A DNA stretch of 64,000 bases from Clostridia bacterium (GCA_017516825.1 JAFXBC010000043.1:4019-68018); one strand, 5' to 3'; numbered from the stretch's first letter, positions 952-63,051 are shown. Numbers and translations are program-made. The notes: generated by a model from the sequence alone, not told the origin.

Positions 952-1027
952 AAGGAAACTTCTTTGGGAAAAGAAGTTTCCTTGAACCTTCAAGAAACCT
1001 TATTGCCGAAACGCAGTTGCGTTTCGG
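952..1027 (+). repeat. Bipartite 3'-end hairpin module E1
   Basis: Palindrome AAGGAAACTTC..GAAGTTTCCTT, linker ..CCTTCAAGAAACCTTATTG, hairpin CCGAAACGCAGTTGCGTTTCGG plus T-run. Begins 7 nt after the stop at 944. Confidence 0.8.
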
Positions 1028-1123
1028 TATTTTTATTTTATCCCACGGGATTCCAAAGGGACTTGACCTGCTTGCAGGTCTTCCCTTCTGGCAGGGGATC
1101 ACAAGGGGACGGAGTCCCCTTGG

Positions 1124-3043
1124 TTAAGCGTCTCTTCCGATCGTCACTCTCTTGCCGTTCGTCTCCCCGCGGGCAACCTCTTTGCCGCCGTCGGAGACCA
1201 CCCAGCCGCCCTTGCCTACGCGAATGCCGTAGCACCCGCCGCAGATGGGGAGCTTTTCCAGGCTGATCTCACCCAGCTCCTCAAAGTAGACAGGCACAAA
1301 GGAGAAAGCTGTAAGCCCCTCCGGCCGAATACCGAAAAGCCCCTCTGTGACCACCCGTGCAAACAACGCGCTTTCCCCGGAAAGATGGCGCTTCCCGCCC
1401 TCCGGATAAGCCTCCACCGCATAGGGCACGCGATCACACAACAACCGCTTGCGGCAGTACCCCAAGAAGGGCGCCATGATCCGATCCCCCGCACCGGCAA
1501 GGAAGGCCGCCTTCATGCCGTACAGCGTGGAACGATCCCAAATGGTGCTGGAACGGTTTTCCTCGGAGATCTCGCAGGTCAGCATCCCTTCCTCCGTCCA
1601 CAGATAGGAGGAAAGCATGGCGTTCAAAGTGCCCTCCTTTCGTTTTCCCATCTCCATGCACAAGGGCAGGCAGATCCACGCCCGCAACGTGTCGTACCCC
1701 TTGGAGTAGCGGTAGGTCTCAAACCCGTGAAGCTCCGCACCGAAATAGCTGTCAATAGCCTCCGCCAACGCGGCGGCTCTCTTTTGATATTCCTCTGCCG
1801 TGTCAACGTCTCCCAAGGACTCCGCCAACTTGGAGGCAAATACCAACCCGCCGTAGCATAAGCAGGAGGTGGAAAGGTTGGCCTTCCTGTCCGTGGGGAA
1901 GCGCCCCTCCAATTCATCGGAATCGGAACGGATCACACCCTCCGGCAGGGTCTGACGGCGGCAGTACTCCGCACACCACTTGATGGCAGGGTAAAGCTCC
2001 TTGGCAACAGCCTCATCCCCTGCGTAAAGGCAGAACAGGGAAGCCCCGTACAAGTACATGGCCGCGTCCCCGCGGTCTCCCGCACCCTCCCAGATGTCCA
2101 GCCCCTCCGCGATAATGGAGCAGGGAAGCTTGTGGAAGCTGTCGGACATGAAAGCCGTGTAGGAGCGATAAGCGTTCAGGGAAGCCTCCATGGCAGCCTT
2201 GTCTCCCGTCATGGCGAAATGGGGGCCTGCGTACTCCGCCTGGTCGTTGCACCAGGTGGCGGCGTAGTAGGAGCGTCCCCCGGGGCTGTGATACTTCCCG
2301 GTGAGGGTCTCGAAAATGCTTTCCCCGGCGCGGAGCTTGGAAAAACGGAACATTCCGTCCAATACGGGGTTTGCGGTGCGGAGAACCGGGGTGCCGCAAA
2401 GCTCCTCCACCCGCGCAAGACGCGCCAAAAGCTCTTGCCCGCCGTCTACCTCGGGGCAGGGCTGATTGGCGATCCGTGCGGAGTAGTAAACGTAATAGGT
2501 CAGCGTGTCACCCGAGGCAAGCTTGATCACCTCCGGCGCATCGTGGCGGATCTCCGCAAGGTAAACCCCCTTGGTGCCTCTGCCGTATTCGCAGAGATGG
2601 GTAGTCGGCAGGGAAAGGGTAAACTCCCCGTCCTCTATGGCCATCAAGGACACCTGCTCCACACAGCAAAGTGCGTTTTGGGCAGGGTAAAAACGGCGCA
2701 CCACCAGAACGTCTTCGTCGGTATCGCAGGTGATGCAAAGAGTGCCGTCTAGCTCCGCCTGAATGGGGAATTCCTTCACGGGAACGCCGTCCTTCAAAAG
2801 ACGGGGCGCCTGCTCCCTTGCCACGTCAAAATGATAGGTGGCGTGGGTGTGGTTGGGAATGGTACGCAGGGTAGGGAAGTAAAAGCTCTGCTCCAAATGC
2901 AGGGTGCCGTCCTCCTTCACCCCGTAGGAAATGATCTCGTCGGCGTAAAAGCCGCTCATTTCAATGTCGTCGGTGTGAAATTGCCCTTTTTTGATCTCCC
3001 AAACCAAACGCTCCCCGTCGATCCTCCAGATCTGCTCCGTCAT
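1124..3043 (-). CDS. Cytoplasmic glycoside-hydrolase-like protein, probable (alpha/alpha)6-barrel; family not assignable by eye
   Basis: 639-aa ORF without signal peptide and with its own promoter at 3077..3106. The helical C-terminal half carries acidic motifs (GDRGDAAMYLYG, SDSDELEGRF) reminiscent of six-hairpin glycosidases. Confidence 0.45.
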   Translation of the reverse strand: MTEQIWRIDGERLVWEIKKGQFHTDDIEMSGFYADEIISYGVKEDGTLHLEQSFYFPTLRTIPNHTHATYHFDVAREQAPRLLKDGVPVKEFPIQAELDGTLCITCDTDEDVLVVRRFYPAQNALCCVEQVSLMAIEDGEFTLSLPTTHLCEYGRGTKGVYLAEIRHDAPEVIKLASGDTLTYYVYYSARIANQPCPEVDGGQELLARLARVEELCGTPVLRTANPVLDGMFRFSKLRAGESIFETLTGKYHSPGGRSYYAATWCNDQAEYAGPHFAMTGDKAAMEASLNAYRSYTAFMSDSFHKLPCSIIAEGLDIWEGAGDRGDAAMYLYGASLFCLYAGDEAVAKELYPAIKWCAEYCRRQTLPEGVIRSDSDELEGRFPTDRKANLSTSCLCYGGLVFASKLAESLGDVDTAEEYQKRAAALAEAIDSYFGAELHGFETYRYSKGYDTLRAWICLPLCMEMGKRKEGTLNAMLSSYLWTEEGMLTCEISEENRSSTIWDRSTLYGMKAAFLAGAGDRIMAPFLGYCRKRLLCDRVPYAVEAYPEGGKRHLSGESALFARVVTEGLFGIRPEGLTAFSFVPVYFEELGEISLEKLPICGGCYGIRVGKGGWVVSDGGKEVARGETNGKRVTIGRDA

Positions 3044-3076
3044 AACCCGTTACCTCTTTGTAGCTTTATTTTCTTA

Positions 3077-3106
3077 AGTATATCACAAGGCGTTTGGTTT
3101 TGTCAA
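3077..3106 (-). promoter_or_regulatory. Sigma-A-type promoter TTGACA-18-TATACT for the 1124..3043 gene
   Basis: Read on the minus strand. Confidence 0.6.
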
Positions 3107-3210
3107 TGAAAACACCTCCGAAAACGATGGTTTTCAACAATGGGTTTTTCTTTTTGGATCCTTTGTTCTCCCGCAAAAAAGGACCCTTTTGCAAGAGTCC
3201 TTTGATACGG

Positions 3211-4731
3211 TTATTCCTGTTCTCTCTGGTTGAAGGTCTCGATGAGATCATCCAGTGCCGACTGTGCGGAGCTTGCCAACCCGTCGTAGCTGGAGGCGAA
3301 GGAGCCCTTGGGCTTGTTGATGAGCTCGGTCAGCATATTGGACAGCCCGCCCACGCGGTAAACTGCCCCAAGATCTGCACCCGCGCAATCGAAGATCAGC
3401 TCCAGCATCTCCACGTCGTCGTCGGTACGGAGCTTCTGGTACTGCAGAACTACGTCGTAGTAGGTGGTGGCCACGGTATCCACGGAGTAAGCACCCAGCG
3501 CGTCCAGGATCACCTGTGCGCGGTAGGATCTCTCCTCGTCCATGCCGTAGGGGATGCAGTACGCGTTGGAGGACCATGCACCTACCTGGGTGTAGTACTG
3601 CTCCTGGTTTTTGTCAAACAAAGGAGAGGGGAGAATACCGAAATCGCTCTGCATATCGCCCAGCTTCAATGCATCCTCAATGCCGCCGGAATAGAACAAA
3701 CACTGGTCTGCCTTAAAGGAATCCAGCAGCAGAGTCATGGGGGTGGAGGACTCGTTAAAGTAATCGTCACCGCAAACGTAATCCTCGCTGTCCTGGAGCA
3801 GATCCAGAATGGAATCCACCACCTTGGCGCTTCTTTCGTTGTATACGGAGATGTAGGGAACACCCGCTTCGTCCACGTCGGCAATACGCTCCCCGGCGCC
3901 GTAGAACAGCTTCTGCATATCGCCGTTCTGACCTGCCCAGCCGTAGCTGTCGTGGTAAGTGATCTTGCCGTCCTTATCCAGGTCTTCGCTGAGATCCGCC
4001 TGCTTGATCAGCTCCAGGATCTTCTCGATGGTCCATTCCTTGTTGCGGACCAGCTCGTAGGGATATTGGATACCCGCATCGTCCATCAGCTTTTTGTTGA
4101 AGAACAGGCATCCCGCCGCGTTCTTGGCGCGCAAGCCGATGTCGCCGGTGAGGTAGTAGGTGCAGTTGCCGATGGCGGTGTCGGAAATAAAGGTCTGATC
4201 CCACCAGGAGTTTTGGATACGGATACCGGGAGCGGTAGCCAGGTCGATGATCAACCCCTCCGCCGCCATGGTGCCTGCATCCAGCAAGCAGGGATACAGA
4301 ATGTCGTAATCCCCCGTGCCGGAATACCCGAACTCACGGACAGCCGCCAGGAAGGTGCCGCCGTACCGCTTGGGGTCGATCATGATCTCTTCCTCAATGG
4401 TGATGCCGTAAGCCGCTTCCACCGCCTCGGTGCGCTCCTTGATGGCAACGGAAAGCGCCTTGGCGCAGGTCTCGTTGTTGGAGTTGTCCCCGATCTCGGT
4501 GACGTAGGAATCGTTGAATGCCGCGGTAAACACCTTGATGGTCTCCCCTTGGAATTCATCCGTCTCGATAAAGCTGTCGTCGTTCTTCGAAACCTCGTCG
4601 CTGATCTCGGGCAGAGAGCCGGGATCGGAGGCCACGGCAGAGCTTTCGGGCGTCTCGCCGCCGCAGCTTGCCAGCATCAGCAAGGCAAAGGTCAACAGCA
4701 GACAGATGCAGAGCAGTCTTTTCATGTTCAT
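3211..4731 (-). CDS. Extracellular solute-binding lipoprotein (large family-1 ABC SBP type); orphan, no permease or ATPase nearby
   Basis: Lipoprotein signal MNMKRLLCICLLLTFALLMLASCGG. About 500 aa, paralogous to 48793..50328 and 50344..51900 (shared WTIEK/WTIDK, FGILP/FGVLP and YY..V motifs). Confidence 0.8.
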   Translation of the reverse strand: MNMKRLLCICLLLTFALLMLASCGGETPESSAVASDPGSLPEISDEVSKNDDSFIETDEFQGETIKVFTAAFNDSYVTEIGDNSNNETCAKALSVAIKERTEAVEAAYGITIEEEIMIDPKRYGGTFLAAVREFGYSGTGDYDILYPCLLDAGTMAAEGLIIDLATAPGIRIQNSWWDQTFISDTAIGNCTYYLTGDIGLRAKNAAGCLFFNKKLMDDAGIQYPYELVRNKEWTIEKILELIKQADLSEDLDKDGKITYHDSYGWAGQNGDMQKLFYGAGERIADVDEAGVPYISVYNERSAKVVDSILDLLQDSEDYVCGDDYFNESSTPMTLLLDSFKADQCLFYSGGIEDALKLGDMQSDFGILPSPLFDKNQEQYYTQVGAWSSNAYCIPYGMDEERSYRAQVILDALGAYSVDTVATTYYDVVLQYQKLRTDDDVEMLELIFDCAGADLGAVYRVGGLSNMLTELINKPKGSFASSYDGLASSAQSALDDLIETFNQREQE

Positions 4732-26738: not shown

Positions 26739-26822
26739 TAGGTTTGCACAAAAAATAAAAAAACAATTGCTTGTGCAATTGCTTGGAATATATAGTTTCT
26801 GCGAAAACCTATTTTATTTCTT

Positions 26823-26895: not shown

Positions 26896-26908
26896 AAAAC
26901 GTTCTTCC

Positions 26909-36825: not shown

Positions 36826-36832
36826 CTATCTC

Positions 36833-36905: not shown

Positions 36906-36927
36906 AAACGTTCTCTCGTATTTTATA

Positions 36928-43035: not shown

Positions 43036-43038
43036 AAG

Positions 43039-44328: not shown

Positions 44329-44616
44329 GTGAAAAAAGCAAAATTTATCGCAGGCCTTTGTCTCATCGGTCAATCCATCCTCTTTTTCATCCTGTTCTTG
44401 GTGTACTGGAACAAGTCCAAGAGCCTTTCCCGCACCCTTGCCGTGTTCTCCGCGGTAGGCGGCGTGGCAGGCGCTTACCTGGTGTTCAACGAGCTTCGTA
44501 ACCAGAAGATCTCCCGGGCTATGGAGGAGGACTTCGAGGATTACGACGTGGATTTCATCGAGGATCTTGAGGACATTTTCGACGGCGATATCGAGTGCGC
44601 CTTCGGAGAAGACTAA
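44329..44616 (+). CDS. Hypothetical small membrane protein with acidic C-tail
   Basis: GTG start follows AAGGAAG. Two hydrophobic helices, then a DFEDYDVDFIEDLEDIFDGD tail. No family recognised. Confidence 0.45.
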   Translation: MKKAKFIAGLCLIGQSILFFILFLVYWNKSKSLSRTLAVFSAVGGVAGAYLVFNELRNQKISRAMEEDFEDYDVDFIEDLEDIFDGDIECAFGED

Positions 44617-44631
44617 AGCCAAAAACAAGAA

Positions 44632-44658
44632 TCAGCACTCTCTATATGGGAGTGCTGA
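44632..44658 (+). promoter_or_regulatory. CIRCE-like HrcA operator upstream of htpG
   Basis: TCAGCACTC-N9-GAGTGCTGA versus consensus TTAGCACTC-N9-GAGTGCTAA (8 of 9 per arm, exact 9-nt spacer). Lies 92 nt before the htpG ATG. Confidence 0.6.
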
Positions 44659-44749
44659 TTTTAACATTTTTGTCACAAATACCCCGAAGTTCTTTCACAA
44701 CACGGGGGTATACTGCAAGTATCAGATCAAACAAAGGAGTGTGAATCAT

Positions 44750-46531
44750 ATGGCAAACGGTGCATTGTCGGTGGATACCGAGCATCTTTTTCCCATCATC
44801 AAAAAATGGCTGTATTCCGAGAAGGACATCTACCTCCGTGAGGTGCTGTCCAATTCCTGCGATGCGGTCACCAAGCATAAACGGTTGGTCTCCCTGGGTG
44901 AGGCGGCGGAAAGCGAGACTCCCTACCGCATCGACGTACGGGTAGACAAGGAAGCCCGCACCATCACCGTCTCCGACAACGGCATCGGTATGTCGGAAGC
45001 CGAGGTAGAGAAATACATCAACAACATCGCCCTGTCCGGGGCTGTGGACTTCATCTCCAAATACGAGGGAGAGGGAGGAAGCGGCATCATCGGCCACTTC
45101 GGCCTGGGCTTCTATTCCATGTTCATGGTGGCGGATAAGGTCACCATGGAGACCAAGTCCTACACCGACGCTCCCGCCGTGCTGTGGGAATGCACCGAGG
45201 CAGGCGCCTACGAAATGCAGCCCGGCACCCGTACCGAACGGGGCACCGAGATCACCATGTACCTCATGGAGGACGAGGAAGCCTACCTTTCCGCCGATGC
45301 CTTGAAGCCCATCCTGGAAAAATACTGCTCCTTCATGCCCGTGGAGATCTACCTCCACGACGGCGAAAAGGAGGAGCTGATCAACGAGACTACCCCGCTT
45401 TGGCAGAAGAACCCCGCCGATTGCAGCGACGAGGAGTACAAGGAGTTCTACCGCAAGCAATTCCACGATTACACCGACCCTCTGTTCTGGGTGCACATCA
45501 ACGCCGATTACCCCCTGAACTTCAAGGGCATCCTGTACTTCCCCCGCCGCAAGAACGCCTTCGACACCCAGGAGAGTGAGATCCGTCTTTTCTACAACTC
45601 CGTGTTCGTGGCGGACAACATCAAAGAAGTCTGCCCCGAGTTCCTGATCAACCTGAAGGGCGTTCTGGATTGCCCCGAGCTTCCCTTGAACGTCTCCCGC
45701 AGCTACCTGCAGAACGACGCCTACGTCCGCAAGGTATCCGCCCACATCGTCAAGAAGGTCTCCGACCGTCTCAACTTCCTCTTTAACGACAACCGCGAGG
45801 AGTTCGAAAAGAATTGGGAAGGCTTCAAGCCCTACATCCAGTATGGCTGTATCAAGGACAGCAAGTTTAACGACCGTGCCAAGGGCGTGATCTTGTTCGA
45901 GAAGGCAACCGGCGGCTGGAGCACCCTGTCCGAGTATCTGGAGGACAAGGAAGAAGGCACCGTTTACTATACCACCGATCCCAAGGCCCAGAGCTACTAC
46001 CTGGATCTGTACGCCGCAAAGAACATCCCCGTTCTGGTGTTCGATACCATCATGGACACCAACTATGCCCAGTTCTGTGAGAGCAAAAACGACAAGGTGA
46101 AGTTCCGCCGCATCGACGCCGACCTGGACGCCATCAAGGGAGAAGGGGAGACGGACACCGCATCCCTGGAGGCCCTCTTTAAGGCCGCCGTGGGCAAGGA
46201 AGACGCCAAGGTATCCTTCGTCACCCTGGGCAAAGAGGACGCCCCTGCGCTCCTCTCCGTCAGCGAGGAGAGCCGCCGTATGGCAGAGATGATGAGAATG
46301 TACAGTATGCAGGGCGAAGGCGACTTCTCCTTCCCCGTGGAGGAGATCCTCACCGTCAACGTGGGCAGCCCCCTGGTGCAGAAGCTGCAAACCCTCCCCG
46401 AAGGAGACGAAAAAGCGTCCCGCATCGCCAAGCATATCTACCTCTCCGCCGTGATGCTCGCCCGCCCCCTCACCCCCGAAGAACTCCGCGCCTACGTTGC
46501 CCTCAACCGCGAGATCCTGATGGCACTGTAA
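44750..46531 (+). CDS. htpG: Molecular chaperone HtpG (Hsp90)
   Basis: ORF 44567.. trimmed to ATG 44750, which follows AAAGGAG. Motifs YSEKDIYLREVLSNSCDA, DNGIGMS and GHFGLGFYS. Confidence 0.9.
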   Translation: MANGALSVDTEHLFPIIKKWLYSEKDIYLREVLSNSCDAVTKHKRLVSLGEAAESETPYRIDVRVDKEARTITVSDNGIGMSEAEVEKYINNIALSGAVDFISKYEGEGGSGIIGHFGLGFYSMFMVADKVTMETKSYTDAPAVLWECTEAGAYEMQPGTRTERGTEITMYLMEDEEAYLSADALKPILEKYCSFMPVEIYLHDGEKEELINETTPLWQKNPADCSDEEYKEFYRKQFHDYTDPLFWVHINADYPLNFKGILYFPRRKNAFDTQESEIRLFYNSVFVADNIKEVCPEFLINLKGVLDCPELPLNVSRSYLQNDAYVRKVSAHIVKKVSDRLNFLFNDNREEFEKNWEGFKPYIQYGCIKDSKFNDRAKGVILFEKATGGWSTLSEYLEDKEEGTVYYTTDPKAQSYYLDLYAAKNIPVLVFDTIMDTNYAQFCESKNDKVKFRRIDADLDAIKGEGETDTASLEALFKAAVGKEDAKVSFVTLGKEDAPALLSVSEESRRMAEMMRMYSMQGEGDFSFPVEEILTVNVGSPLVQKLQTLPEGDEKASRIAKHIYLSAVMLARPLTPEELRAYVALNREILMAL

Positions 46532-46554
46532 AACCGAATAGAGGACGACGAAAA

Positions 46555-46628
46555 AGAGGAACTTTTTAAAAAAAGTTCCTCTTTAAATCTCCTCAAAAAC
46601 TTCTCGTTCCGAAAACTGTCGTTTTCGG
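46555..46628 (+). repeat. Bipartite 3'-end hairpin module E3
   Basis: AGAGGAACTTTTT..AAAAAGTTCCTCT, linker TTAAATCTCCTCAAAAACTTCTCGTT, hairpin CCGAAAACTGTCGTTTTCGG. Begins 23 nt after the htpG stop. Confidence 0.8.
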
Positions 46629-46729
46629 GGGATGCTCAATATTACTGATTTCGCCCCGCGACAAAGCTTCACCAACGAAGAGGATAAGCAGGGGCGTACG
46701 ATATTTCCCGCTTGCGAAGCAAGCCTCGC

Positions 46730-53520: not shown

Positions 53521-54411
53521 ATGACAAGAACCGCATTCATCACCATTACGGGCAAGCCCAACGTAGGCAAGTCCACTCTGCTGAACGCCCTGCTGGGGGA
53601 GAAGGTCGCCATCGTCTCCCGCAAGCCCCAGACCACCCGCAACCGTATCACGGGCATCCTCACCAAGGGGGAGGATCAGTACGTGTTCATCGATACCCCC
53701 GGCCTTCATAAGCCCAAAACCCTTTTGGGTGAATACATGATGAAGCAGGCGGGCAACGCCGCCTCGGATTCCGATGTGATCCTGTTCATGTTGGAGGCCT
53801 GCACCCCCTTGAACGCCACCGAGGAGGCCACCCTGGAGAAGTATTCCAACTCCCGCACCCCTCTGCTTTTGGTGATCAATAAGGTGGACAAGGCCAACAA
53901 GGCCAAGCTTGCCGCCCAGATCATGGAGCTTTCCACCAAATACGACTTTGACGCCGTCATCCCCGTGTCCGCCGCCAATAAGGACGGGCTGGAGGGCATC
54001 TTCAAGGAGCTGGAGCCCTTTATGACGGAAAGCGTCCATTTCTTCCCCGACGACGAGATCACCGACCAGCCGGAGCGGCAGATCTTTTCAGAGATCGTCC
54101 GCGAGAAGGCGCTTCGTCTCCTCAGCGAGGAGGTGCCCCACGGTATCGCTGTGGCCATCGAGGAATTCACCGAAAAGAAGGACGTCCTGGTGGTCCGTGC
54201 GGAGATCTTCTGCGAGCGCGCCTCCCACAAGCGGATCATCATCGGCAAGGACGGGGAGATGCTGAAAAAGATCGGCACCTACGCCCGTGAGGAAGCCCAG
54301 GAGATCTTCGGTGCCAGAGTGTACCTGGATCTGTGGGTCAAGGTCAAGGAGAACTGGCGGGATAAGCCCGTTCTGCTGAACAACTTCGGCTATAACGGCG
54401 AGGATTACTGA
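53521..54411 (+). CDS. era: GTPase Era
   Basis: GKPNVGKSTLLN, DTPG and NKVD motifs plus a KH domain. Confidence 0.95.
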   Translation: MTRTAFITITGKPNVGKSTLLNALLGEKVAIVSRKPQTTRNRITGILTKGEDQYVFIDTPGLHKPKTLLGEYMMKQAGNAASDSDVILFMLEACTPLNATEEATLEKYSNSRTPLLLVINKVDKANKAKLAAQIMELSTKYDFDAVIPVSAANKDGLEGIFKELEPFMTESVHFFPDDEITDQPERQIFSEIVREKALRLLSEEVPHGIAVAIEEFTEKKDVLVVRAEIFCERASHKRIIIGKDGEMLKKIGTYAREEAQEIFGARVYLDLWVKVKENWRDKPVLLNNFGYNGEDY

Positions 54412-55166
54412 TGCAACACAAAGTGAAAGGCATCGTTGTCCGGGAAGCCGCCAAGGGAGAAAACGATAAGCTGCTCACCATCCTCACGGGGGAAGAGGGT
54501 GTCATCACCGTCAGAGCCCCGGGGGTGAGAAAGCTTTCCGCCTCCAATCTGCGCTCCGCCCAGCTCTTTGCCTATTCCGACCTGCTTTTATACGTAAAAA
54601 ACGGCTTTTATACTCTGCAGGAATCCATCCTGCGGGAGGATTTCTACGCCCTGCGGGAGGACGTAACGGATTTCGCTTTGGGCTGTTACCTTTGCGAGCT
54701 TGCCTCTGCCGTCTCCGTAGGCGGGGAAGAGGGGAACGAGATCCTGCGGTTGTTGCTCAACGCCTTGTACGCCGCGGAAAAGAAGATCGCGCCTCCCAAG
54801 CTGATCAAGACCGCCTTTGAGTTCCGCCTGGCCGCCCTCATCGGCTACGAGCCGGAGCTTTCCGAATGCCCCCTTTGCGGCAAGCCTGCGGAGCAGATGC
54901 AAAACCGTATGTTCGAGCTGACCGACGGCTACCTGTTCTGCGCCTCCTGCGATTCTCCCGAGGAGGGCTTCACCCGCCGCGCTCCCGTGTCTCCCGCTTG
55001 CTTTGCCGCCATGAAGCATTTGCTGGTCTCCCCGGTGAACAAGATCTTCCTGTTCCGCCTGGAGGAGTCCGCCCTGGCAGAGCTTTCTGCTCTCACCGAG
55101 GAATACCTCTTATTGCGTGTAGAGCGTAAAATGAAGACACTGGATTTCTTGAAGAAAAACTTATAA
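54411..55166 (+). CDS. recO: DNA repair protein RecO
   Basis: TGATG overlap with era. OB N-terminus and zinc finger CPLCG ... CASC. Confidence 0.85.
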   Translation: MQHKVKGIVVREAAKGENDKLLTILTGEEGVITVRAPGVRKLSASNLRSAQLFAYSDLLLYVKNGFYTLQESILREDFYALREDVTDFALGCYLCELASAVSVGGEEGNEILRLLLNALYAAEKKIAPPKLIKTAFEFRLAALIGYEPELSECPLCGKPAEQMQNRMFELTDGYLFCASCDSPEEGFTRRAPVSPACFAAMKHLLVSPVNKIFLFRLEESALAELSALTEEYLLLRVERKMKTLDFLKKNL

Positions 55167-55173
55167 GGGTACG

Positions 55174-55252
55174 CTTAAGAAACTTTCTTTCGAAAAAGAA
55201 AGTTTCTTAAGAATCTTCAAAGAAACGCATTGCCAAAAGCTGGCGCTTTTGG
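55174..55252 (+). repeat. Bipartite 3'-end hairpin module E6
   Basis: CTTAAGAAACTTTCTTTCGAAAAAGAAAGTTTCTTAAG, linker AATCTTCAAAGAAACGCATTG, hairpin CCAAAAGCTGGCGCTTTTGG. Begins 7 nt after the recO stop. Confidence 0.8.
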
Positions 55253-55369
55253 AAGAAGGAAAAAAATGCGGGTTTCCAAAGGGACCCGGGTCCCTTTGGC
55301 GGGGAGTATAAGGGGCGGCGCCCCTTGGGCGTACTCCATACTTCACCCATCATCAAAAAGGAACAAACC

Positions 55370-57739: not shown

Positions 57740-57760
57740 AACGTATAAAGGAGCAAACAC

Positions 57761-59560
57761 ATGACCGACGTAAGAGCCGATATTCCGGCAAAGTACAAAT
57801 GGGATCTCTCCGTGATCTACGCAGACATGAAGGCCTTTGATGCCGACTATGACCGCGCCAAGGAAATGATCGCCGCATTCCCTGCCCATAAGGACACCAT
57901 GCTCACAAGTGCAGAGGCGCTGTACAATATGTTCTGCGATATGACCGCTCTGGGCCGTATCCTCCAGAAGCTTTACAGCTACGCCTCCCTTAACTCCGAC
58001 GTGGACACCTCCGATAACAGCTACGTTTCCCTGAAGGGCCGCGTGATGAACCTGGACAACGACCTGTCCGCCGCCGCCTTCTTCGTGGATCCCTACCTTC
58101 TCCGCCTGGACGACGAGACTCTGAACAAATGGTTCGCCGAATTCCCCAAGCTGGAGGAATACCGCCGCTCCATCGAGGCCTCCCTCCGCTACCGTCCCCA
58201 CACCCTGTCCGACGAGTGCGAAAAGCTGATGGCAGACCTGTCCGCAGGCTTCCACACCCACGGCAACATCCGCTCCACCTTCTCCAACGCCGATCTCACC
58301 TTCGGCAAGATCAAAGGGGAAGACGGCAAGCCCGTGACGCTCACCGACAGCACCTACGGCATCTTCCTCCAAAGCACCAACCGCCGCGTCCGTAAGGCGG
58401 CCTTCGACCGTATCTACGCTACCTATTCCTCCTTCGGCAACACCTACGCCGCACTGATGAACTCCTTCGTCAAGGAGCGCACCACCTACGCCAAGGTGAG
58501 AAACTTCCCCGACAGCATCACCGCCTCCGTCTTCCGTGACGAGGTGACCCCCGTTATCTACAACAACCTGTGCGACACCGTTTCCAAGAACCTGAAGCCT
58601 CTCTACGATTACTACGCGCTGAAGAAGAAGGCTCTGGGTGTTCCCAAGCTTCACCTCTACGACATCTACACCCCCCTCATCTCCTCCTGCGACCGTAAGT
58701 ATACCTACGAGGAAGCGGTTGACATCGTCCTGGATGCCATCAAGCTCTTCGGCGAGGAATACCACTCCACCCTGTCCGCAGGCCTTAAGGAAAAGGGCTG
58801 GGCAGACGTTTACCCCAACAAGGGCAAGCGTGGCGGTGCTTACAGCTCCGGCAGCTACGATACCGAGCCCTATATCCTTTTGAACTATACCGACACCCTG
58901 GACGACGTTTCCACCCTGGCACACGAAGCAGGCCACTCCATGCACAGCTACTTCTCCGCCAAGGCCAACACGCCCCAGGAATCCCACTACACCATCTTCG
59001 TGGCAGAGGTCGCCTCCACCGTCAACGAGCTGGTGCTGTTCCGCAAGCTCCTCCGCGAGTCCGACAACCGCGAGGAAAAGCTGTACATTCTCAATCAGCT
59101 CATGGAGACCTACAAGGGCACCCTCTACCGCCAGACCATGTTCGCAGAGTTCGAAAAGGAAATGCACGCCATGGTGGAAGCAGGGGAGACCCTCACCAAG
59201 GATCTGCTGTGCAAGCGCTACTACGAGCTGGTACGCCGTTACTTCGGCAAGGACGTTGTCTGCGATAAGCAGATCGCCTGCGAGTGGATGCGTATTCCTC
59301 ACTTCTACTACAACTTCTACGTTTACAAGTACGCCACCTGTATCTCCGCCGCTTCCGCCATCGTGAAGAAGATCGAGGAGCAGGGTGACGCGTACGTGGA
59401 GAAGTATCTGAACTTCTTAAAGTGCGGCGGATCCCGCAGTCCTCTGGACAGCCTGCTGGTTGCCGATATCGACCTCACCAAGCCCGAGGTCATCGAGGAC
59501 GCCATCGCCGACTTCGCCGCGGCCGTGGAGCAGTTCCGCACCCTCTACGAGGCTGAATAA
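57761..59560 (+). CDS. pepF: Oligoendopeptidase F (M3B)
   Basis: HEAGHSMH zinc motif and family-typical length. Confidence 0.9.
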   Translation: MTDVRADIPAKYKWDLSVIYADMKAFDADYDRAKEMIAAFPAHKDTMLTSAEALYNMFCDMTALGRILQKLYSYASLNSDVDTSDNSYVSLKGRVMNLDNDLSAAAFFVDPYLLRLDDETLNKWFAEFPKLEEYRRSIEASLRYRPHTLSDECEKLMADLSAGFHTHGNIRSTFSNADLTFGKIKGEDGKPVTLTDSTYGIFLQSTNRRVRKAAFDRIYATYSSFGNTYAALMNSFVKERTTYAKVRNFPDSITASVFRDEVTPVIYNNLCDTVSKNLKPLYDYYALKKKALGVPKLHLYDIYTPLISSCDRKYTYEEAVDIVLDAIKLFGEEYHSTLSAGLKEKGWADVYPNKGKRGGAYSSGSYDTEPYILLNYTDTLDDVSTLAHEAGHSMHSYFSAKANTPQESHYTIFVAEVASTVNELVLFRKLLRESDNREEKLYILNQLMETYKGTLYRQTMFAEFEKEMHAMVEAGETLTKDLLCKRYYELVRRYFGKDVVCDKQIACEWMRIPHFYYNFYVYKYATCISAASAIVKKIEEQGDAYVEKYLNFLKCGGSRSPLDSLLVADIDLTKPEVIEDAIADFAAAVEQFRTLYEAE

Positions 59561-59582
59561 GAGTACGAATAGGAACGCGTTT

Positions 59583-59659
59583 AAGGGGAAACTTTCGAAA
59601 AAGTTTCCCCTTAAAAATCCCCTTCAAACCTCAATGCCCGATCCGTTTCACGAATCGGG
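59583..59659 (+). repeat. Bipartite 3'-end hairpin module E4
   Basis: AAGGGGAAACTTTCGAAAAAGTTTCCCCTT, linker AAAAATCCCCTTCAAACCTCAATG, hairpin CCCGATCCGTTTCACGAATCGGG, with a T-run at 59666-70. Begins 22 nt after the pepF stop. Confidence 0.8.
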
Positions 59660-59915
59660 AAGCGGTTTTTGTCACCTCTGCGAAACCCGGTCCGTTGGAC
59701 TCATCTCGTACGGAACGTAGCCACGGCTACTTGTCACCCTGAGCAAGCGCGGAATGGAGCTGTTACGGCTGTGCACAACGGTATATCTCCGCGCGCGTCG
59801 AACTGTGGGGAGTGGCGTTAGCCCGAACCACAGGCAAAAAATGCCTCGCATTTTTTGAGGGTATGGGATGCTTTTCGATACAGCCTTTTTTCGCATATCA
59901 ACTCACACCCCCCGC

Positions 59916-60012
59916 AAAAAAACAGGCTCGGAAACACTCCAAGCCTGTTTTTTCTTCACAATGAGTTTCTTGAAAGGTGCGGAAAACTTCTTTTTCGAAA
60001 GAAGTTTTCTGC
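59916..60012 (-). repeat. Bipartite 3'-end hairpin module E8
   Basis: On the minus strand: GCAGAAAACTTCTTTCGAAAAAGAAGTTTTCCGC, linker ACCTTTCAAGAAACTCATTGTGAAG, hairpin A6-CAGGCT..AGCCTG-T7. Begins 13 nt after the sigma-fusion stop. Confidence 0.8.
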
Positions 60013-60025
60013 AAACCGTACCCCC

Positions 60026-62512
60026 TCACTCCCGATCCTTGTACCCGATTCCGTTGTGAAGCACCAAAAGGCCGTCCTCGTCCTCCACGTAGGTATGCTC
60101 CAACGCACCGTGCCAGATCCCGGAAATATCGATAGGCTCGTACCGACGGAACAGCCCGCCGACCATGGGGAAGTACCCCTCGCCCTGGCCGCGATATGTT
60201 ACCAGCTCCCAAACGGAGGTTTTCGTGCCGCCCCAGAAATCCGTCTCAAATCGTACCACGCCCACACCGGGTGCGAACCAGTACTGCTTCTTCCCGTTGC
60301 CGTAGCCCATGCCGCCTCCGAAGCCCTCGGCGGTGTAAGTGACGTGCCTGCAGTTCTCAAACCGCCCTGCGGCCACCTCCACCGTCTCGTCCTCCAGAAC
60401 GTCCATGACGATCTTCACCTCCGGGTTCCATGCGTCGATCCCCTTTCGTTCCATGTGATAGCCGGGGACCCACTCGTCGGACCACAGCGTCCCCAGATCA
60501 TCCTCCAGCCTGTCGAACAGAAAGGAGTAAAGCAGCTTCCAGCCCTGCTCCCCGCAATCTCCCAGGCACTTCCACTCAAAGGAGTAGGAGCGGTTGTCGT
60601 TAAACTTACGCTTTTCCTTGTCCGCTTCCAGATAGCAGAAGAAGTTCCACACTCCCTGCACGGCAGTTTCGGGGTTGAAATCCGGGTTGGTGAGGAGGAT
60701 CCTCTCCATGACCTCCTTCGCCACGGCGGCGTGAGCCTTTTCACGCTCCGTCACCGCCAAAGACACAGCACGGTCGGTATACTTCCGCACGTCGATGGCC
60801 TTTTCGGTGTACCGCTCGAAATACCCGTGCCGCGCCGCAAGGCAGTTCCCGCGGAAGGTGTCGGAATATCCCACGTCCTCTGCCGCAAGGTACGCCGCCA
60901 CGGTGACGGAATCCTTGGTAGCACCGGTAACCTCCAAAACGCGTTCCACCTTCTGGATCACGTCGGGGTCGCCAACGCAACCGTATTCCCAGCGGTTGCC
61001 GGTGGCAAAGGGGAGATAACCTTCACCGCCCTTGATCTCCGCCTTGGTCAAAAACCATTCGTAGCGATTCTGCCGATTCACCTTCTGCTTGACGATGCCC
61101 ACCCCGGGAGCAAAATAGGTCTCCGCATAGGTCAGCCCGTAGTGTTCTCCCTCCAGCACCGTACAAATGCAGTTCTCAAACTTCCCTGCAGGGGTCTCCA
61201 CCGTGAAGTTTCTCCCCTTGAAGGTCATTTTGATCTTCCCGTCGGAGGCCTCCAGAACCTGGCCGTCCTCCATCTCCGGGTCAAGGATCAAGCTGTCCAC
61301 CTGACTGCAGTTCCAGAACTCCGCGCACTCCATATCGTCCCCGCGGGTGTAGCCGGGCTGGGACCAGAAATACCACTTCCCGCCGATGTTCTTGTAAAGC
61401 TCCCCGGTGGGAGTGCCGTGTACGTTGTGAGGGCTGTTCTTGGCAACCGTCTCAAAAGCAATGGCCGCCTTGGCGTTGGCGTAATACAAGTCGCCTGGCT
61501 TTGAGATCTCCATCACCTTGCGGTAGCATTCCAACGCCTTGTCCACTTCTTTTTGACCGTCCACGTAAGCATAGCCCAGCCAGAACCATTCGTAGGCCAG
61601 TGCCTCCACGAATCCGTTCTTCTCCAAAAAGGGGATCTGTTGCTCCCGCATCTGCTCCTTGCTCAGCTTATCGTTCTCATAAGCCATCACGGACTGCATC
61701 ACGTCCTCGTTGTGGCTGTCCAACGCCGCCTGCTTGATGCGGGCAAAGGTCTCGTCGTTCTTTTCTCCGGGGATCCACCAGTATCCTCGCAACAGCACGT
61801 CCGCCAAAGCGTATTGCTTCTCGGGGGATTCCTCTAAGGATTCCACGTTCTTCAAAACCATGCGGTATTCCGCCTCCACCCCGGAGCGGTCGTTTTTGAG
61901 CCCCCAGAGCTTCAGCTGTTCCACCTGGTACATCACCTTTTCCACAAAGGTCATTTCGTCCATTCGTTCGTTCATCACACCGTATTCCTTTCTAAGTAGC
62001 TTTCTTCCCTCGGAAAGCCGCCACTTCACCGTACCGATGGGGAGCCCCAGCTCCTCTGCGATCTCCTTCACGGAAAGCCCTTCAAAATAATGTAGCTCCA
62101 CCGTCTGTCGGATCTTATCGCTGAGCGTTTCCAAAGCCTCCTGCAGATCCATCTGCTGTTCCGCCCTTTCGTCGCGGAGACCCAAAGCCTCCGTATTCTC
62201 CAAAAGATGCAAGCTGATCTCTCCGCAGGTGTTCCTGTAATGGGTCACCACCGCCTTGGCGCAGTTCTTGGCGATGGCGCAGACCCAAGGGCCGAACTTC
62301 TCCCGCTCCCGCAAGCCGTCCAGCTTCATCCAGGCGGAAACGAAAGCGTCCTGGGAGGCGTCCTCCGCAGAGAATTGGTTCCCCGTCACCTTGTACGCCG
62401 TGCCCTTCACGGCCTTTTCGTAACGGCGTACCAGCTCCTCGTAGGCGTATTGCTCCCCCAAAAGGGACAGTTCCACCAGGGTGCCGTCGGATTTGTCTGT
62501 GTACTTGTTCAT
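60026..62512 (-). CDS. ECF-like sigma-70-family factor fused to a ~640-aa soluble C-terminal region with an internal beta-domain duplication
   Basis: ORF trimmed to ATG 62512, which follows GGAGGA. Region 2 (DASQDAFVSAWMKL) and region 4 (LSVKEIAEELGLPIGTVKWRLSEGRKLL). Duplicated block TVE(T/V)(P/A)AG(K/R)FENC ... (Y/W)FAPGVG(I/V)V. Confidence 0.8.
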   Translation of the reverse strand: MNKYTDKSDGTLVELSLLGEQYAYEELVRRYEKAVKGTAYKVTGNQFSAEDASQDAFVSAWMKLDGLREREKFGPWVCAIAKNCAKAVVTHYRNTCGEISLHLLENTEALGLRDERAEQQMDLQEALETLSDKIRQTVELHYFEGLSVKEIAEELGLPIGTVKWRLSEGRKLLRKEYGVMNERMDEMTFVEKVMYQVEQLKLWGLKNDRSGVEAEYRMVLKNVESLEESPEKQYALADVLLRGYWWIPGEKNDETFARIKQAALDSHNEDVMQSVMAYENDKLSKEQMREQQIPFLEKNGFVEALAYEWFWLGYAYVDGQKEVDKALECYRKVMEISKPGDLYYANAKAAIAFETVAKNSPHNVHGTPTGELYKNIGGKWYFWSQPGYTRGDDMECAEFWNCSQVDSLILDPEMEDGQVLEASDGKIKMTFKGRNFTVETPAGKFENCICTVLEGEHYGLTYAETYFAPGVGIVKQKVNRQNRYEWFLTKAEIKGGEGYLPFATGNRWEYGCVGDPDVIQKVERVLEVTGATKDSVTVAAYLAAEDVGYSDTFRGNCLAARHGYFERYTEKAIDVRKYTDRAVSLAVTEREKAHAAVAKEVMERILLTNPDFNPETAVQGVWNFFCYLEADKEKRKFNDNRSYSFEWKCLGDCGEQGWKLLYSFLFDRLEDDLGTLWSDEWVPGYHMERKGIDAWNPEVKIVMDVLEDETVEVAAGRFENCRHVTYTAEGFGGGMGYGNGKKQYWFAPGVGVVRFETDFWGGTKTSVWELVTYRGQGEGYFPMVGGLFRRYEPIDISGIWHGALEHTYVEDEDGLLVLHNGIGYKDRE

Positions 62513-62623
62513 GGCGTCCTCCGTCTTCTTTTTTGAGTACTCGACCATAAGAGGGAAAAAAGATGTCAAAAGGTTGGGTGTGTAACAAAATTTTATCATA
62601 TTTTTTTAAGAAGCGCAAGATTT

Positions 62624-62698
62624 AAGGGGGAACTTTCGAAAAAGTTCCCCCTTAAGATCCCCTTCAAACCTCAATGCCCGATCCGTTTCACGAATCGG
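62624..62698 (+). repeat. Bipartite hairpin module E5 (no plus-strand gene upstream; lies in the duplicated segment)
   Basis: Copy of E4 with a compensatory A-T to G-C change in the stem. Confidence 0.8.
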
Positions 62699-62954
62699 AA
62701 GCGTCTGCATGTCACCTCTGCGAAACCCGGTTCGTTGGACTCATCTCGCACGGAACGTAGCCACGGCTGCTTGTCACCCTGAGCAAGCGCGGAATGGAGA
62801 TGTTACGGCTGTGCACAACGGTATATCTCCGCGCGCGTCGAACTGTGGGGAGTGGCGTTAGCCCGAACCACAGGCAAAAAATGCCTCGCATTTTTTGAGG
62901 GTATAGGATGCTTTTTGATACAGCCTTTTTTCGCATATCAACTCACACACCCGC

Positions 62955-63051
62955 AAAAAACAGGCTCGGAACACACTCCAAGCCCGTTTTTTTCTTCACA
63001 ATGGGTTTCTTGAGGGGTGTGGGGAACTTCTTTTCCGAAAGAAGTTCCCCA
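62955..63051 (-). repeat. Bipartite 3'-end hairpin module E9
   Basis: Copy of E8 with a compensatory AA/TT to GG/CC change. Begins 33 nt after the spoVAE stop. Confidence 0.8.

Follow-up and report, generated by a model that had tools for sequence, protein, structure and literature searches.

A putative hairpin/triplex/hairpin element repeated just behind gene 3' ends in gut Clostridia

Among the operon-end genes of this uncultured gut Clostridia genome and of related genomes, about half have a two-hairpin element of about 100 bases just past the stop codon. In the 64-kb stretch of DNA analysed here (the window) it occurs ten times, every copy intergenic (Table 1), and related DNA totalling 0.42 Mb yielded about 70 more. 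The best explanation is that the module is a clade-specific structured element that acts in cis and would be transcribed as the first part of the upstream gene's 3' UTR. Its linker mirrors its first hairpin, and we consider the chances evenly balanced that the module is co-transcribed as a putative hairpin/triplex/hairpin that defines or protects mRNA 3' ends.

The initial annotation had reported nine copies (E1 to E9) of a three-part hairpin module, and had proposed scanning this and related genomes with a covariance model and searching Rfam. A model built from 34 copies from other genomes together with E2 and E3, and run over the window with filters off, recovered all nine copies at the positions first reported (E = 2e-18 to 2e-6), along with a tenth, decayed copy. 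Further copies were present in related genomes, covered as 8-kb loci, such that approximately 12 gut and rumen Clostridia MAGs carry the module and 87 distinct copies were collected. The hairpin-1 palindromes of the nine copies account for nine of the top 14 inverted repeats in the window, and a degenerate pattern comprising hairpin 1, linker and ATTG, which matches five of the nine, found nothing in 100 shuffles. The module is not a named Rfam family, as RNase P was the sole match when the whole window was compared with Rfam 15 at gathering threshold; permissive scans around E6 and E4-E8 returned chance-level microRNA/sRNA matches only (best E 0.019, bits far under gathering scores).

Table 1. 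Copies of the module in the window and associated features; positions are counted from the first letter of the window.
Feature	Position	Strand	Remarks
E1	936..1039	+	after gene 510..944(+), stop 7 nt upstream; 80.4 bits, E 9.5e-15
E1 hairpin 1	951-965/970-984	+	loop GGGA; arms 100% complementary
E1 mirror third strand	987-998	+	CCTTCAAGAAAC
E1 hairpin 2	1004-1029	+	then TTTTTATTTT
Tenth copy, decayed	3106..3203	-	after gene 3211..4731(-); 35 bits, E 2.2e-5
Tenth copy linker remnant	3144-3158	-	TCCAAAAAGAAAAAC; hairpin 2 at 3119-3136
Promoter, strong	3106-3077		TTGACA-18-TATACT; after tenth copy
E7	26811..26910	-	after gene 26909..28219(-); 88.3 bits
E7 hairpin 1	26881-26896/26861-26876	-	third strand 26849-26860; hairpin 2 26823-26842
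Separate canonical terminator 3' of E7	26784-26761		then promoter 26738-26710
E2	36821..36921	-	after methionine gamma-lyase-like gene 36928..38157(-); 84.9 bits
E2 hairpin 1	36874-36908	-	one bulged T; third strand TCCCCAAAGAAC 36860-36871; hairpin 2 36833-36852
Separate bidirectional terminator 3' of E2	36824-36789
E3	46538..46640	+	after htpG 44567..46531(+); 70.8 bits
E3 hairpin 1	46553-46567/46570-46584	+	third strand TCTCCTCAAAAAC 46588-46600; hairpin 2 46609-46628
E6	55161..55264	+	between recO 54411..55166(+) and mutS2; 97.9 bits, E 2.3e-18
E6 hairpin 1	55174-55190/55195-55211	+	third strand TCTTCAAAGAAAC 55214-55226; hairpin 2 55233-55252
E4	59567..59671	+	after pepF 57761..59560(+); 49.8 bits, E 1.9e-8
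E4 hairpin 1	59580-59595/59600-59615	+	third strand TCCCCTTCAAAC ~59618-59629
E4 variant hairpin 2	59637-59659	+	CCCGATCCGTTTCACGAATCGGG
E8	59912..60027	-	after ECF sigma/anti-sigma fusion gene 60026..62599(-); 40.5 bits, E 1.6e-6
E8 hairpin 1	59998-60013/59978-59993	-	one A.C mismatch; third strand CCTTTCAAGAAAC 59965-59977
E8 bidirectional terminator replacing hairpin 2	~59916-59955
E5	62607..62711	+	no co-oriented gene before; 40.1 bits, E 1.9e-6
E5 hairpin 1	62621-62636/62641-62656	+	third strand ~62658-62669; variant hairpin 2 62677-62698
E9	62952..63085	-	after spoVAC (stop codon at 63085, minus strand); 47.2 bits, E 6.8e-8
E9 hairpin 1	63038-63051/63020-63033	-	third strand CCCCTCAAGAAAC 63005-63017
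E9 tandem partial 5'-arm copies, three	~63052-63082		GGGGGACGA type
E9 bidirectional terminator replacing hairpin 2	~62955-62995

The three-part layout first described is upheld: a palindrome (hairpin 1) is followed by a conserved linker reading ...CAA(A)GAAAC..ATTG and then by hairpin 2, CCGAAAAC-NNNN-GTTTTCGG, which takes a variant form in E4 and E5 and gives way to a full bidirectional terminator in E8 and E9. Hairpin 1 is long and AT-rich at its top, with arms that read AAGGGGC TTTCTTT / AAAGAAA GCCCCTT and a foot that is either (C)TTAAG or variable; in the nine window copies the arms span 14-17 nt and are 94-100% complementary. The initial claim that the palindrome arms vary together likewise stands, with compensatory changes seen in both hairpins. 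Over the two hairpins, 98.9% of cells are paired compared to 82% after shuffling (observed values reached in 0/500 shuffles), changes fall on both sides in 17 of 22 pairs, and slid controls are only 46-68% paired. Among 55 distinct hairpin-1 stems G.T outnumbers A.C by 20 to 3 (p = 5e-4), and the sense strand is therefore the folding strand.

The reported association with gene 3' ends extends across genomes. In approximately 62 of 70 copies, on either strand, hairpin 1 comes -2 to 62 nt (mostly 7-28 nt) behind the stop of a co-oriented coding ORF, and a convergent gene lies closer than 80 nt to the 3' end of the module in only about 11 of 70. Copies on both strands are interleaved along the window, where eight of the nine start 7-33 nt past a co-oriented stop codon, and convergent gene pairs have two facing copies, each behind its own gene. 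The neighbouring genes are of an ordinary housekeeping type (recO, htpG, pepF, spoVAC etc.) and lie 3-20 kb apart. The exception, initially described as a duplicated copy, is E5, the duplicate of E4; it belongs to a ~435-bp segment, bounded by inverted copies, that is duplicated at ~95% identity (59580-60013 and 62621-63051; 91% identity over 526 columns in the duplication alignment).

In keeping with the initial annotation, the module is not an ordinary intrinsic terminator. With such terminators, bidirectional ones included, it shares a place after genes and the presence of hairpins, and hairpin 2 is followed by a T-run in E1 and in ~20-25% of copies, but hairpin 1 is long and AT-rich at its top, no copy has a U-tract after it, and the sequence is conserved between copies. 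Hairpin 2 sits at the usual place of a terminator. Of 82 copies, 10 have at least six T in the eight positions after hairpin 2 and another 10 have 4-5, most copies continuing with GGGAGAGG and not with U's. Within the window, E1 has a T-run behind hairpin 2 and E4 a weak one, and when the window was scanned for terminators in the sense direction the only hairpin 2 to score was that of E1, which is followed by TTTTTATTTT and is therefore an intrinsic terminator. The E4-type variant hairpin 2 in locus L020 precedes TTTCTTTTT, a T-run, and in E8 and E9 the place of hairpin 2 is taken by a hairpin with an A-run on one side and a T-run on the other. Behind each of E2 and E7 lies a separate canonical terminator, indicating that the module itself does not end those transcripts. 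The genes recO and mutS2 lie ~160 nt apart and look co-transcribed, and no terminator was called between them.

The linker had been described as conserved in sequence and not in structure, and this part of the initial annotation needs revision: the linker co-varies with hairpin 1 as a mirror repeat, not as a Watson-Crick partner, which argues for third-strand pairing over a plain single-stranded binding site. Specifically, it repeats the 3' arm of hairpin 1 in mirror image, which equals the parallel complement of the 5' arm, so that the E3 stem GAGGAAC/TTTTT is mirrored in its linker as CTCCTC/AAAAA. Compared in parallel register with the complement of their own 5' arm, linkers score a mean of 8.15 versus 6.73 when shuffled (z = 12.5, 0/20000), and alignment as a direct repeat reaches only z = 3.1. 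Where the 5' arm reads T(a)CT(b) and the linker A(c)GA(d), the correlation between a and c is 0.96. Of 32 stem groups, 30 have a = c, as do 13 of the 14 in which a is not 3 (values 2, 4, 5, 7); groups with such atypical runs and a = c include short variants in Christensenellales and other Clostridia, and short variants of distant lineages obey the parallel register without hairpin 2 and without the pyrimidine run. The better register is parallel in 21 of 27 asymmetric modules and antiparallel in none. Over 54 modules, 712 levels could be aligned in parallel register (87% complementary) as opposed to 411 in antiparallel register, and a column test on four variable levels gave a covariation of 0.178 vs 0.070 (0/500). 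No own-specific Watson-Crick partner of the linker was identified in the 3' arm or within 60 nt upstream and 80 nt downstream, nor was covariation detected for an antiparallel helix between linker and 5' arm. The pyrimidine part fits less well than the purine part, with C opposite C-G pairs 52 times and one level usually skipped at the junction; among Y-run types, 13 favour the parallel register, 3 disfavour it and 12 give a tie.

The mirror repeat expected of a generic intramolecular triplex, namely a third strand with the same base as one duplex strand and antiparallel to that strand, is present at the level of sequence. As read from the alignments, the co-variation matches a base-triple code of T.A-T and C+.G-C followed by A.A-T and G.G-C, the same triples and strand polarities as in the two canonical triplex motifs (PMC13541005). 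We infer that this pattern reflects a physical triple helix and that the folded molecule is probably RNA. The sense RNA would form a hairpin of 14-18 bp whose 5' arm is an R-run plus U(a)CU(b) and whose 3' arm is A(b)GA(a) plus a Y-run, and the following ~13 nt, Y-run plus A(a)GA(b), would fold back on it as a third strand, with one base for each level of the helix. The lower half, with its purines in the 5' arm, would hold U.A-U and C+.G-C triples, and the upper half, with its purines in the 3' arm, A.A-U and G.G-C triples. A short spacer, C-NN-AUUG, would lead from the third strand to the 8-bp hairpin 2. The compact hairpin/triplex/hairpin may mark or protect the mRNA 3' end as a roadblock to 3'-to-5' exonucleases, and the 3'-end triple helices ENE and MALAT1 are described as exonuclease blocks (PMC13541005). 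In about a quarter of copies hairpin 2 with its U-run would be the terminator itself; the stabiliser/terminator role is a putative one. We regard as somewhat short of an even chance the prediction that hundreds of bacterial genes are followed by a natural alternate-strand triple helix, formed intramolecularly, in which the downstream strand would read the 5'-arm purines (pyrimidine motif) and then the 3'-arm purines (purine motif).

Two aspects of chemistry weigh against a triplex in sense RNA, since the lower half needs 3-6 adjacent C+.G-C triples, unfavourable at neutral pH, and the upper half depends on A.A-U and G.G-C triples of purine type. Triples of this kind are well established in DNA and poorly documented in RNA. 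The turn from the 3' arm into the third strand has only ~2-5 nt unless the outermost TTAAG pairs open.

Triple helices of the ENE/MALAT1 type are known at the 3' ends of viral, mammalian, plant and fungal RNAs, whereas the module is bacterial and multi-copy. In an ENE one A-rich strand is clamped by two U-rich strands (U.A-U); the module has one U-rich and two A-rich strands, with a third strand that mirrors the 3' arm, and it was rejected as an ENE-type RNA triple helix. The module also has a pyrimidine run over its G-rich lower stem, so that the third strand would have to switch motif, and this strand is internal and not a 3' tail. No sequence or Rfam similarity between ENE/MALAT1 and the module was found.

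Copies are retained behind the same gene in different genomes at 78-93% coding identity. Orthologues were identified for E7 (L014, L046 and L059, 94-99% identical), E6 (L020:965-1068) and E9 (L026, L045 and L054), and the site orthologous to the decayed tenth copy holds an intact module (L047:2682-2789). In the tenth copy itself hairpin 1 is gone and the linker and hairpin 2 are kept, with a terminator-like hairpin, AAAGGACTCTTGCAAAAGGGTCCTTTTTT, upstream of the remnant. An extra hairpin has been gained inside the 3' arm in L067, L048 and L063, and single copies are therefore dispensable, as they can lose hairpin 1 or gain a hairpin. Between L023 and L060 the flanking gene is 99% identical and the module 79%, stem and linker having been exchanged together; this swap resembles turnover or gene conversion among copies and thus weakens the assumption of independent co-variation events. 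Upstream of the hairpin, some copies also have part of the 5' arm repeated in tandem, as 1-3 TAAGRGNACGNT units.

An alternative is a selfish non-autonomous repeat of the REP/REPIN or MITE type that has spread across these genomes and survives only where it is harmless, behind genes and in the non-disturbing orientation, its hairpin and mirror strand being an ssDNA structure recognised by a transposase or RAYT-like enzyme and having no mRNA function. The density of 10 copies per 64 kb, the strong likeness of copies within a genome (hairpin-1 top, linker and hairpin 2), the module replaced between 99%-identical flanks, the tandem partial arms, the decayed and interrupted copies, and the duplicated 435-bp segment with inverted copies at its bounds all favour this reading. 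Both triplex motifs are also chemically comfortable in DNA. We nevertheless think it unlikely, given that the module is kept behind the same genes over the range of coding identities above and is near-strictly co-oriented with the upstream gene on both strands of a single 64-kb window, which replication-strand bias could not produce. The G.T excess points to the transcribed sense strand, no terminal inverted repeats beyond the hairpin itself or target-site duplications were recognised, no transposase was detected among the ten window proteins scanned against Pfam, and a search of 2.9 million viral contigs for the module gave no matches.

The initial suggestion of a REP/BIME-like element holds for copy number and location only. 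Like the REP/BIME elements and REPINs of Enterobacteria and Pseudomonas, the module is a short, imperfect, extragenic palindrome with many copies, many of them shortly behind the 3' ends of genes, and it would likewise be transcribed into 3' UTRs. REP/BIME elements in 3' UTRs can stall 3'-to-5' exonucleases and so stabilise the upstream mRNA. However, the module is three-part and ~100 nt long with a mirror-repeat third strand, has a (C)TTAAG or variable foot and no GTAG/GGAG head, forms facing pairs only at convergent genes, and is almost always co-oriented with the upstream gene, 7-28 nt past its stop, at orthologous sites kept across species. Set against the features of MITEs, it has retained orthologous sites and no TIR or TSD recognised beyond the hairpin, besides the replaced module and the duplicated unit.

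Action at the level of DNA, as a cruciform extruded by the perfect palindrome, an H-DNA-type mirror repeat of 3' arm and linker, or a triplex of nascent RNA or displaced non-template strand with the neighbouring duplex, could block RNA polymerase at gene ends in an orientation-dependent manner. In DNA at neutral pH, far greater stability would be expected of the purine-type half and of G.G-C runs on the antisense strand, the AT-rich centre of the hairpin favours extrusion, and the mirror rule, being symmetric, holds for DNA strands and for RNA:DNA combinations alike. H-DNA is defined at the level of sequence by mirror repeats and is reported to stall RNA polymerases (PMC11667243). The module shares mirror symmetry, the four triples and strand polarities with H-DNA and synthetic alternate-strand triplexes. 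Classical H-DNA, in contrast, requires long homopurine.homopyrimidine duplex tracts, and the module mirror is short (~13 levels) and not homopurine throughout, with a purine block and a pyrimidine block coupled to an inverted repeat. The wobble asymmetry suits a sense strand that folds on its own, RNA being the simplest case, and does not suit a structure based on duplex, and the ordinary terminators behind E2 and E7 and the copy between the co-transcribed-looking recO and mutS2 further make a DNA-level role improbable in our estimation.

We give a similarly low probability to the idea that a sequence-specific protein or a small RNA, for instance a factor for termination, antitermination or processing, docks on the module and reads the conserved loop, single-stranded CAAAGAAAC..ATTG and hairpin 2, the mirror relation being a by-product of subfamily history. 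The hairpin-1 top (CTTTCTTT-NGAA-AAAGAAAG), the linker segment AAAGAAAC, ATTGCC and hairpin 2 are near-invariant across copies and species, a conservation that ordinary terminators lack, and module-wide replacement could bring correlated changes with it. Reading of repeated half-sites by a protein, however, predicts direct or inverted repeats and in no case a mirror repeat; the parallel register is obeyed by at least 13 stem groups with runs of 2, 4, 5 or 7, distant lineages included, and the linker has no own-specific Watson-Crick partner nearby. Integron attC sites, which are also imperfect palindromes at gene 3' ends, co-oriented and conserved in structure with variable sequence, were rejected because the R''/R' core (RYYYAAC/GTTRRRY) is absent, there is no integrase gene nearby and the flanking genes are not arrayed cassettes.

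Mirror co-variation is a sequence signature of a triple helix and has not been described before for a bacterial gene-end element. If the alternate-strand triplex is real, these Clostridia would have a base-triple code written in the co-variation of at least 30 stem variants, and the module would rank as the first counterpart in bacteria of the triple-helix stabilisers at eukaryotic and viral RNA 3' ends; if the triplex instead forms in DNA or as RNA:DNA, it would be a dedicated triplex-based polar transcription barrier.

The nine copies (E1 to E9) of a ~100-nt gene-end module, comprising hairpin 1, a linker, an ATTG spacer and hairpin 2, that had been picked out in the initial annotation of this DNA proved to be real. 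They align with one another over ~90 nt, the arms of their first hairpins are 14-17 nt long and 94-100% complementary, and these hairpins make up 9 of the 14 best inverted repeats of the window. A pattern combining hairpin 1, the linker and ATTG matched five window copies versus 0 in 100 shuffles, and, with filters off, a covariance model (R1) built from a 36-sequence alignment recovered all nine (E = 2e-18 to 2e-6) and a tenth. R1 also identified many copies beyond those chosen by pattern in 8-kb loci fetched from related genomes (L0xx handles; a number after the colon is a locus position). The comparative sample amounts to ~0.55 Mb of related DNA, consisting of loci rather than whole genomes, and 87 distinct modules remained once reverse-strand shadows and duplicates were taken out. 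When 185,579 species-representative genomes were searched for the pattern, 49 loci emerged; two of these are chance matches in Bacteroidota and the rest belong to ~12 Clostridia MAGs from gut or rumen (labelled Eubacteriales, Oscillospiraceae, Clostridia, Christensenellales and Angelakisella). A second pattern of linker and hairpin 2 only was found on 14 contigs of one metagenome assembly. The window itself comes from an uncultured spore-forming Firmicute with a G+C content of ~55%, carrying spoVAC/AD, recO, mutS2, pepF and htpG among its genes, and its RecO had matches on metagenome contigs only. The module falls outside the named Rfam families: at gathering threshold the whole window yielded RNase P RNA only, and two permissive scans, around E6 and E4-E8, gave chance-level matches only. 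Neither pattern matched any viral contig, and there is thus no sign of a phage origin; a distant blastn search of the plasmid collection with the 471-nt E4-E8 unit found no match. Exact module sequence strings were absent from searchable papers, and literature searches by topic returned general triplex and H-DNA reviews only.

Association with gene 3' ends and co-orientation with the gene hold across the wider sample. Counting own-strand ORFs in any frame that have at least 60 codons, are codon-usage-positive and end just upstream, about 62 of 70 modules follow such a gene, with the stop codon -2 to 62 nt (mostly 7-28 nt) before the foot of hairpin 1 and only four to six true exceptions. A convergent gene ending at most 80 nt from the other side of the module was seen in only about 11 of 70, and converging genes can have two facing modules, one behind each gene (L008, L018, L022, L024, L041, L048). 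Plus- and minus-strand copies are interleaved along the window, contradicting replication-strand bias as the cause of orientation. Roughly half of the window's gene ends with real intergenic space downstream are followed by a module. A role as 5' leader of the downstream gene was rejected, as that gene shares the module's orientation in about 24 of 66 cases, well below half, and its distance ranges from 1 to 1500 nt, and so was a recoding signal, given the variable stop-codon distance and no conserved reading frame beyond the stop. The flank from stop to hairpin is patterned, with one to three 12-13-nt units (TAAGRGNACGNT) that resemble the outer 5' arm and often provide the gene's TAA stop; in three cases the stop is a TAA within the hairpin's own TTAAG. 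Tandem units of this kind (GGGGGACGA in E9) set TAA triplets 12 nt apart, frequently in the same frame as the stop of the gene, and are possibly remnants of earlier hairpins or products of slippage.

The suggestion that the module is more than an ordinary terminator was borne out, nothing U-rich being present after hairpin 1. A T-run follows hairpin 2 in about 20-25% of copies, the remainder having mostly GGGAGAGG. Terminator layouts in the window place the module in the 3' UTR, either upstream of a terminator or merged with one. At six loci a second conserved element lies directly behind the module, consisting of (AT)GCGGGATTCYWAAGGGA, hairpin A (CCAAAGGGAC..GTCCCTTTGG or CTTAAGGGAC..) and then CGGGGATCATAAGRGGCGGCGCCYCTTAT (hairpin B), with stems similar to the outer arm of hairpin 1 (TTAAGGGAC); in L007 and L040 a T-run after hairpin B indicates that this element provides the terminator there. 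On the strand antisense to the module, hairpin 2 and the linker complement (CATTNNNTTTCTTTGG) form a weak terminator-like site at two window positions, although its U-rich part begins at a greater distance from the stem than in a canonical terminator, suggesting that the module might also impede transcription entering the gene from its 3' end.

Positions of features associated with the module (window coordinates unless a locus handle is given)
Feature	Position	Strand	Remark
E1 hairpin 2	1004-1029		intrinsic terminator
Terminator behind E2	36824-36789		separate, canonical
Terminator behind E7	26784-26761		separate, canonical
E8 and E9			full bidirectional terminator replaces hairpin 2
E6	between recO and mutS2		without terminator
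Tenth copy	3106-3203	-	decayed
Second element	1046-1125	+
Second element	55269-55335	+
Second element	L007:3822
Second element	L040:3585
Second element	L020:1074
Second element	L034:7237	-
Antisense terminator-like site	26823-26842	+
Antisense terminator-like site	36833-36852	+
Tandem units	63052-63085	-
Tandem units	L024:5576
Tandem units	L039:2417
Tandem units	L020:5375
Exceptions to the position behind a co-oriented gene (examples)	L024:1012, L027:1250, L048:7676
Extra hairpin	L067:8862, L048:5480, L063:758
Inverted hairpin 2, form 1	L046:4171-4190		CCGAAAACTTGCGTTTTCGG
Inverted hairpin 2, form 2	L014 and window 26823-26842		CCGAAAACGCAAGTTTTCGG
tRNA-associated variant	L019:3454-3549		Angelakisella MAG
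Duplicated unit	59580-60013 and 62621-63051
Arginine-rich ORF	59672..59896	-	74 codons
ORF with ECF sigma domain	60026-62599	-	857 codons
RNase P RNA	42694-43036

As first proposed, the arms of hairpin 1 vary and yet stay paired, with RNAalifold reporting compensatory changes at 10 of 16 pairs in the nine copies. Over the 71 best matches, standard pairs occupy 98.9% of cells in both hairpins versus 82.0% in shuffled alignments, both sides have changed at 17 of 22 pairs, and the covariation score of 0.455 (versus 0.122) was reached by 0 of 500 shuffles; sliding the register lowers pairing to only 46-68%. Hairpin 2 has the form CCGAAAAC-NNNN-GTTTTCGG, with clean swaps of A-U to G-C, G-C to A-U, and CCCCAAAC/GTTTGGGG. 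Wobbles in 55 stems of hairpin 1 are biased towards G.T (20, versus 3 A.C; p = 5e-4), with the proviso that the hairpin finder scored G.T mildly positive and so slightly favoured wobbles at stem ends, most of the 20 being internal. In one orthologue set, the L046 copy has the interior of hairpin 2 inverted relative to L014 and the window copy, a flip of the loop and closing pairs of the kind produced by template switching within a hairpin. Three copies (L067, L048, L063) have an extra G+C-rich hairpin in place of the outer 3' arm (GCCCTCGC-TTTCG-GCGAGGG, then ATGGGATCAT, upstream of the CAAAGAAAY strand), which is a structured insertion within the module.

Modules are retained at orthologous sites, being present behind a gene of about 1040 codons in six genomes (coding identity 78-93%), behind a gene of about 70 codons in six species-level genomes, and behind the E7, E6 and E1 genes in two to four genomes, with module identity between such sites (0.69-0.99) similar to that of coding DNA. 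Turnover is also apparent: the 70-codon gene has three stem states with the linker changing along with the stem, the tenth window copy, which has an intact orthologue in L047, has lost hairpin 1, and L023 and L060 have a gene 99% identical followed by modules only 79% identical, indicating that whole-module replacement or very fast hairpin evolution occurs. High copy number and this turnover, together with tandem partial arms and a duplicated 435-bp unit, would suit a selfish REP/MITE-like repeat, an explanation that we nevertheless consider unlikely, as conservation at orthologous sites, orientation coupled to transcription and the wobble bias are at odds with it.

The ~435-bp unit, duplicated at about 95% identity, has an internal sequence of about 260 nt enclosed by a plus-strand module and a minus-strand module, and has the look of a composite that recombination between modules moved or copied. 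Its internal segment is missing from the orthologous pepF/sigma spacer in L020 and contains a 74-codon arginine-rich ORF; structured RNA was rejected for this segment (fold z-scores 0.4 and 1.3; no Rfam match). The neighbouring 857-codon ORF, called at 828 codons in other assemblies, has an ECF sigma factor (regions 2 and 4) at its N terminus and a DUF3108-like domain in its long C-terminal part, and is an unusual sigma/anti-sigma-like fusion.

The linker had been described as conserved in sequence, not structure, a view that we have to revise since it covaries with hairpin 1 as a mirror repeat. If the 5' arm is written as R-run, C, T(a) C T(b), the 3' arm as A(b) G A(a), G, Y-run and the linker as Y-run, A(c) G A(d), C, then relative to the 3' arm the linker has its block order swapped and the order within blocks also reversed (5' arm/linker: CTTCTTT/CAAGAAAC, TTTTCTTT/AAAAGAAAC, TTTTTCTTT/AAAAAGAAAC, TTTTTTTCTTTT/AAAAAAAGAAAAC, GGAAAC/CCTTC, GGGGAAC/CCCCTC and GAGGAAC/CTCCTC). 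Each linker was aligned locally with the complement, left unreversed, of its own 5' arm and of the arms of other copies, which gave an own mean of 8.15 versus 6.73 shuffled (z = 12.5; 0 of 20000), and covariation at the four variable levels (0.178 versus 0.070; 0 of 500) lies above every slid register; because copies are related by descent and replacement, such shuffle statistics overstate independence and group-level counts are safer. By those counts, a equals c in 30 of 32 stem groups, including short variants from Christensenellales and other Clostridia that have neither hairpin 2 nor the pyrimidine run. Of the 14 groups in which a differs from 3, 13 show this equality. One of the two violating groups (a = 5, c = 3) is the Angelakisella variant, a short hairpin and A-run directly behind a tRNA rather than a protein gene. 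Run lengths correlate accordingly (0.96 for a and c, 0.23 for b and c), and 21 of the 27 asymmetric modules favour the parallel register, with none favouring the antiparallel one. In the parallel register 712 positions of 54 modules align with 87% complementarity (T:A 370, G:C 123, A:T 68, C:G 61, and C:C 52 at the junction), compared with 411 positions, from the AAAGAAA block alone, in the antiparallel register. Evidence is weaker for the pyrimidine run, where the parallel register is better in 13 types, worse in 3 and tied in 12.

No own-specific Watson-Crick partner for the linker was found in the 60 nt upstream, the 3' arm or the 80 nt downstream. Complementarity to the 5' arm is partial and block-wise only, as expected since CCCC and AAAGAAA are each mirror-symmetric; the corresponding antiparallel helix is 92.6% paired with no covariation, and two blocks would need to cross, so that an attenuator-like switch (1:2 versus 2:3) is rejected. 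A model in which the linker repeats the 3' arm directly, as a third protein half-site, scored z = 3.1 versus 12.5 for the mirror and is contradicted by the run lengths. Mirror repeats are not produced by any copying process, nor by a protein reading half-sites, and we give a protein or sRNA docking site a low probability.

[quoted passage not shown] In the lower half, with its G/A-rich 5' arm, T.A-T and C+.G-C triples (third-strand base. Watson-Crick pair) would form with the third strand parallel to the purine strand (pyrimidine motif), and in the upper half, with its A/G-rich 3' arm, A.A-T and G.G-C triples would form with the third strand antiparallel to it (purine motif). With these polarities they are the two canonical triplex motifs (PMC13541005). 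The third strand would have to switch purine strands at the junction, and it is there that a level is usually left out or taken up by a C. Being symmetric, the mirror rule holds equally for the antisense strand, with a U/T-rich third strand over the upper and a G-run over the lower stem, and for RNA:DNA combinations or duplex H-DNA formed by the 3' arm and linker. A polar barrier acting at the DNA level, as cruciform or H-DNA, is compatible with the rule and in our view has a low probability. Strict gene co-orientation and the wobble bias of hairpin 1 favour the sense transcript. Counting against a sense-RNA triplex are the adjacent C+.G-C triples in runs at neutral pH and the short turn; to our knowledge, purine-type RNA triplexes are also scarcely documented.

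To a co-transcribed 3'-UTR fold of hairpin, third strand and hairpin, which would define or protect mRNA 3' ends, we give an even chance on the comparative sequence evidence. Its closest functional analogies are REP stabilisers and the ENE/MALAT1 triple helices, from both of which the module differs in architecture; the latter block 3' exonucleases (PMC13541005). These four readings are compatible, as an element spread as a repeat can still serve its host. At bacterial gene ends, a triplex-coded third strand would be a novelty. Read conservatively, the module represents a new family of gene-end elements that extends across a clade of abundant, uncultured Clostridia of gut and rumen, marking about half of the gene ends with real intergenic space behind them, and is useful for building expression tools in these organisms and, in the annotation of MAGs, for recognising operon ends, 3' UTRs and gene orientation. 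If the triple helix is true, bacteria would use such helices routinely and genome-wide in gene expression, beyond a few riboswitch cores, and the family would offer dozens of natural "compensatory triple" variants for studies of purine-type and alternate-strand triplexes, and would make mRNA 3'-end shielding directly testable in bacteria without poly(A)-based protection.
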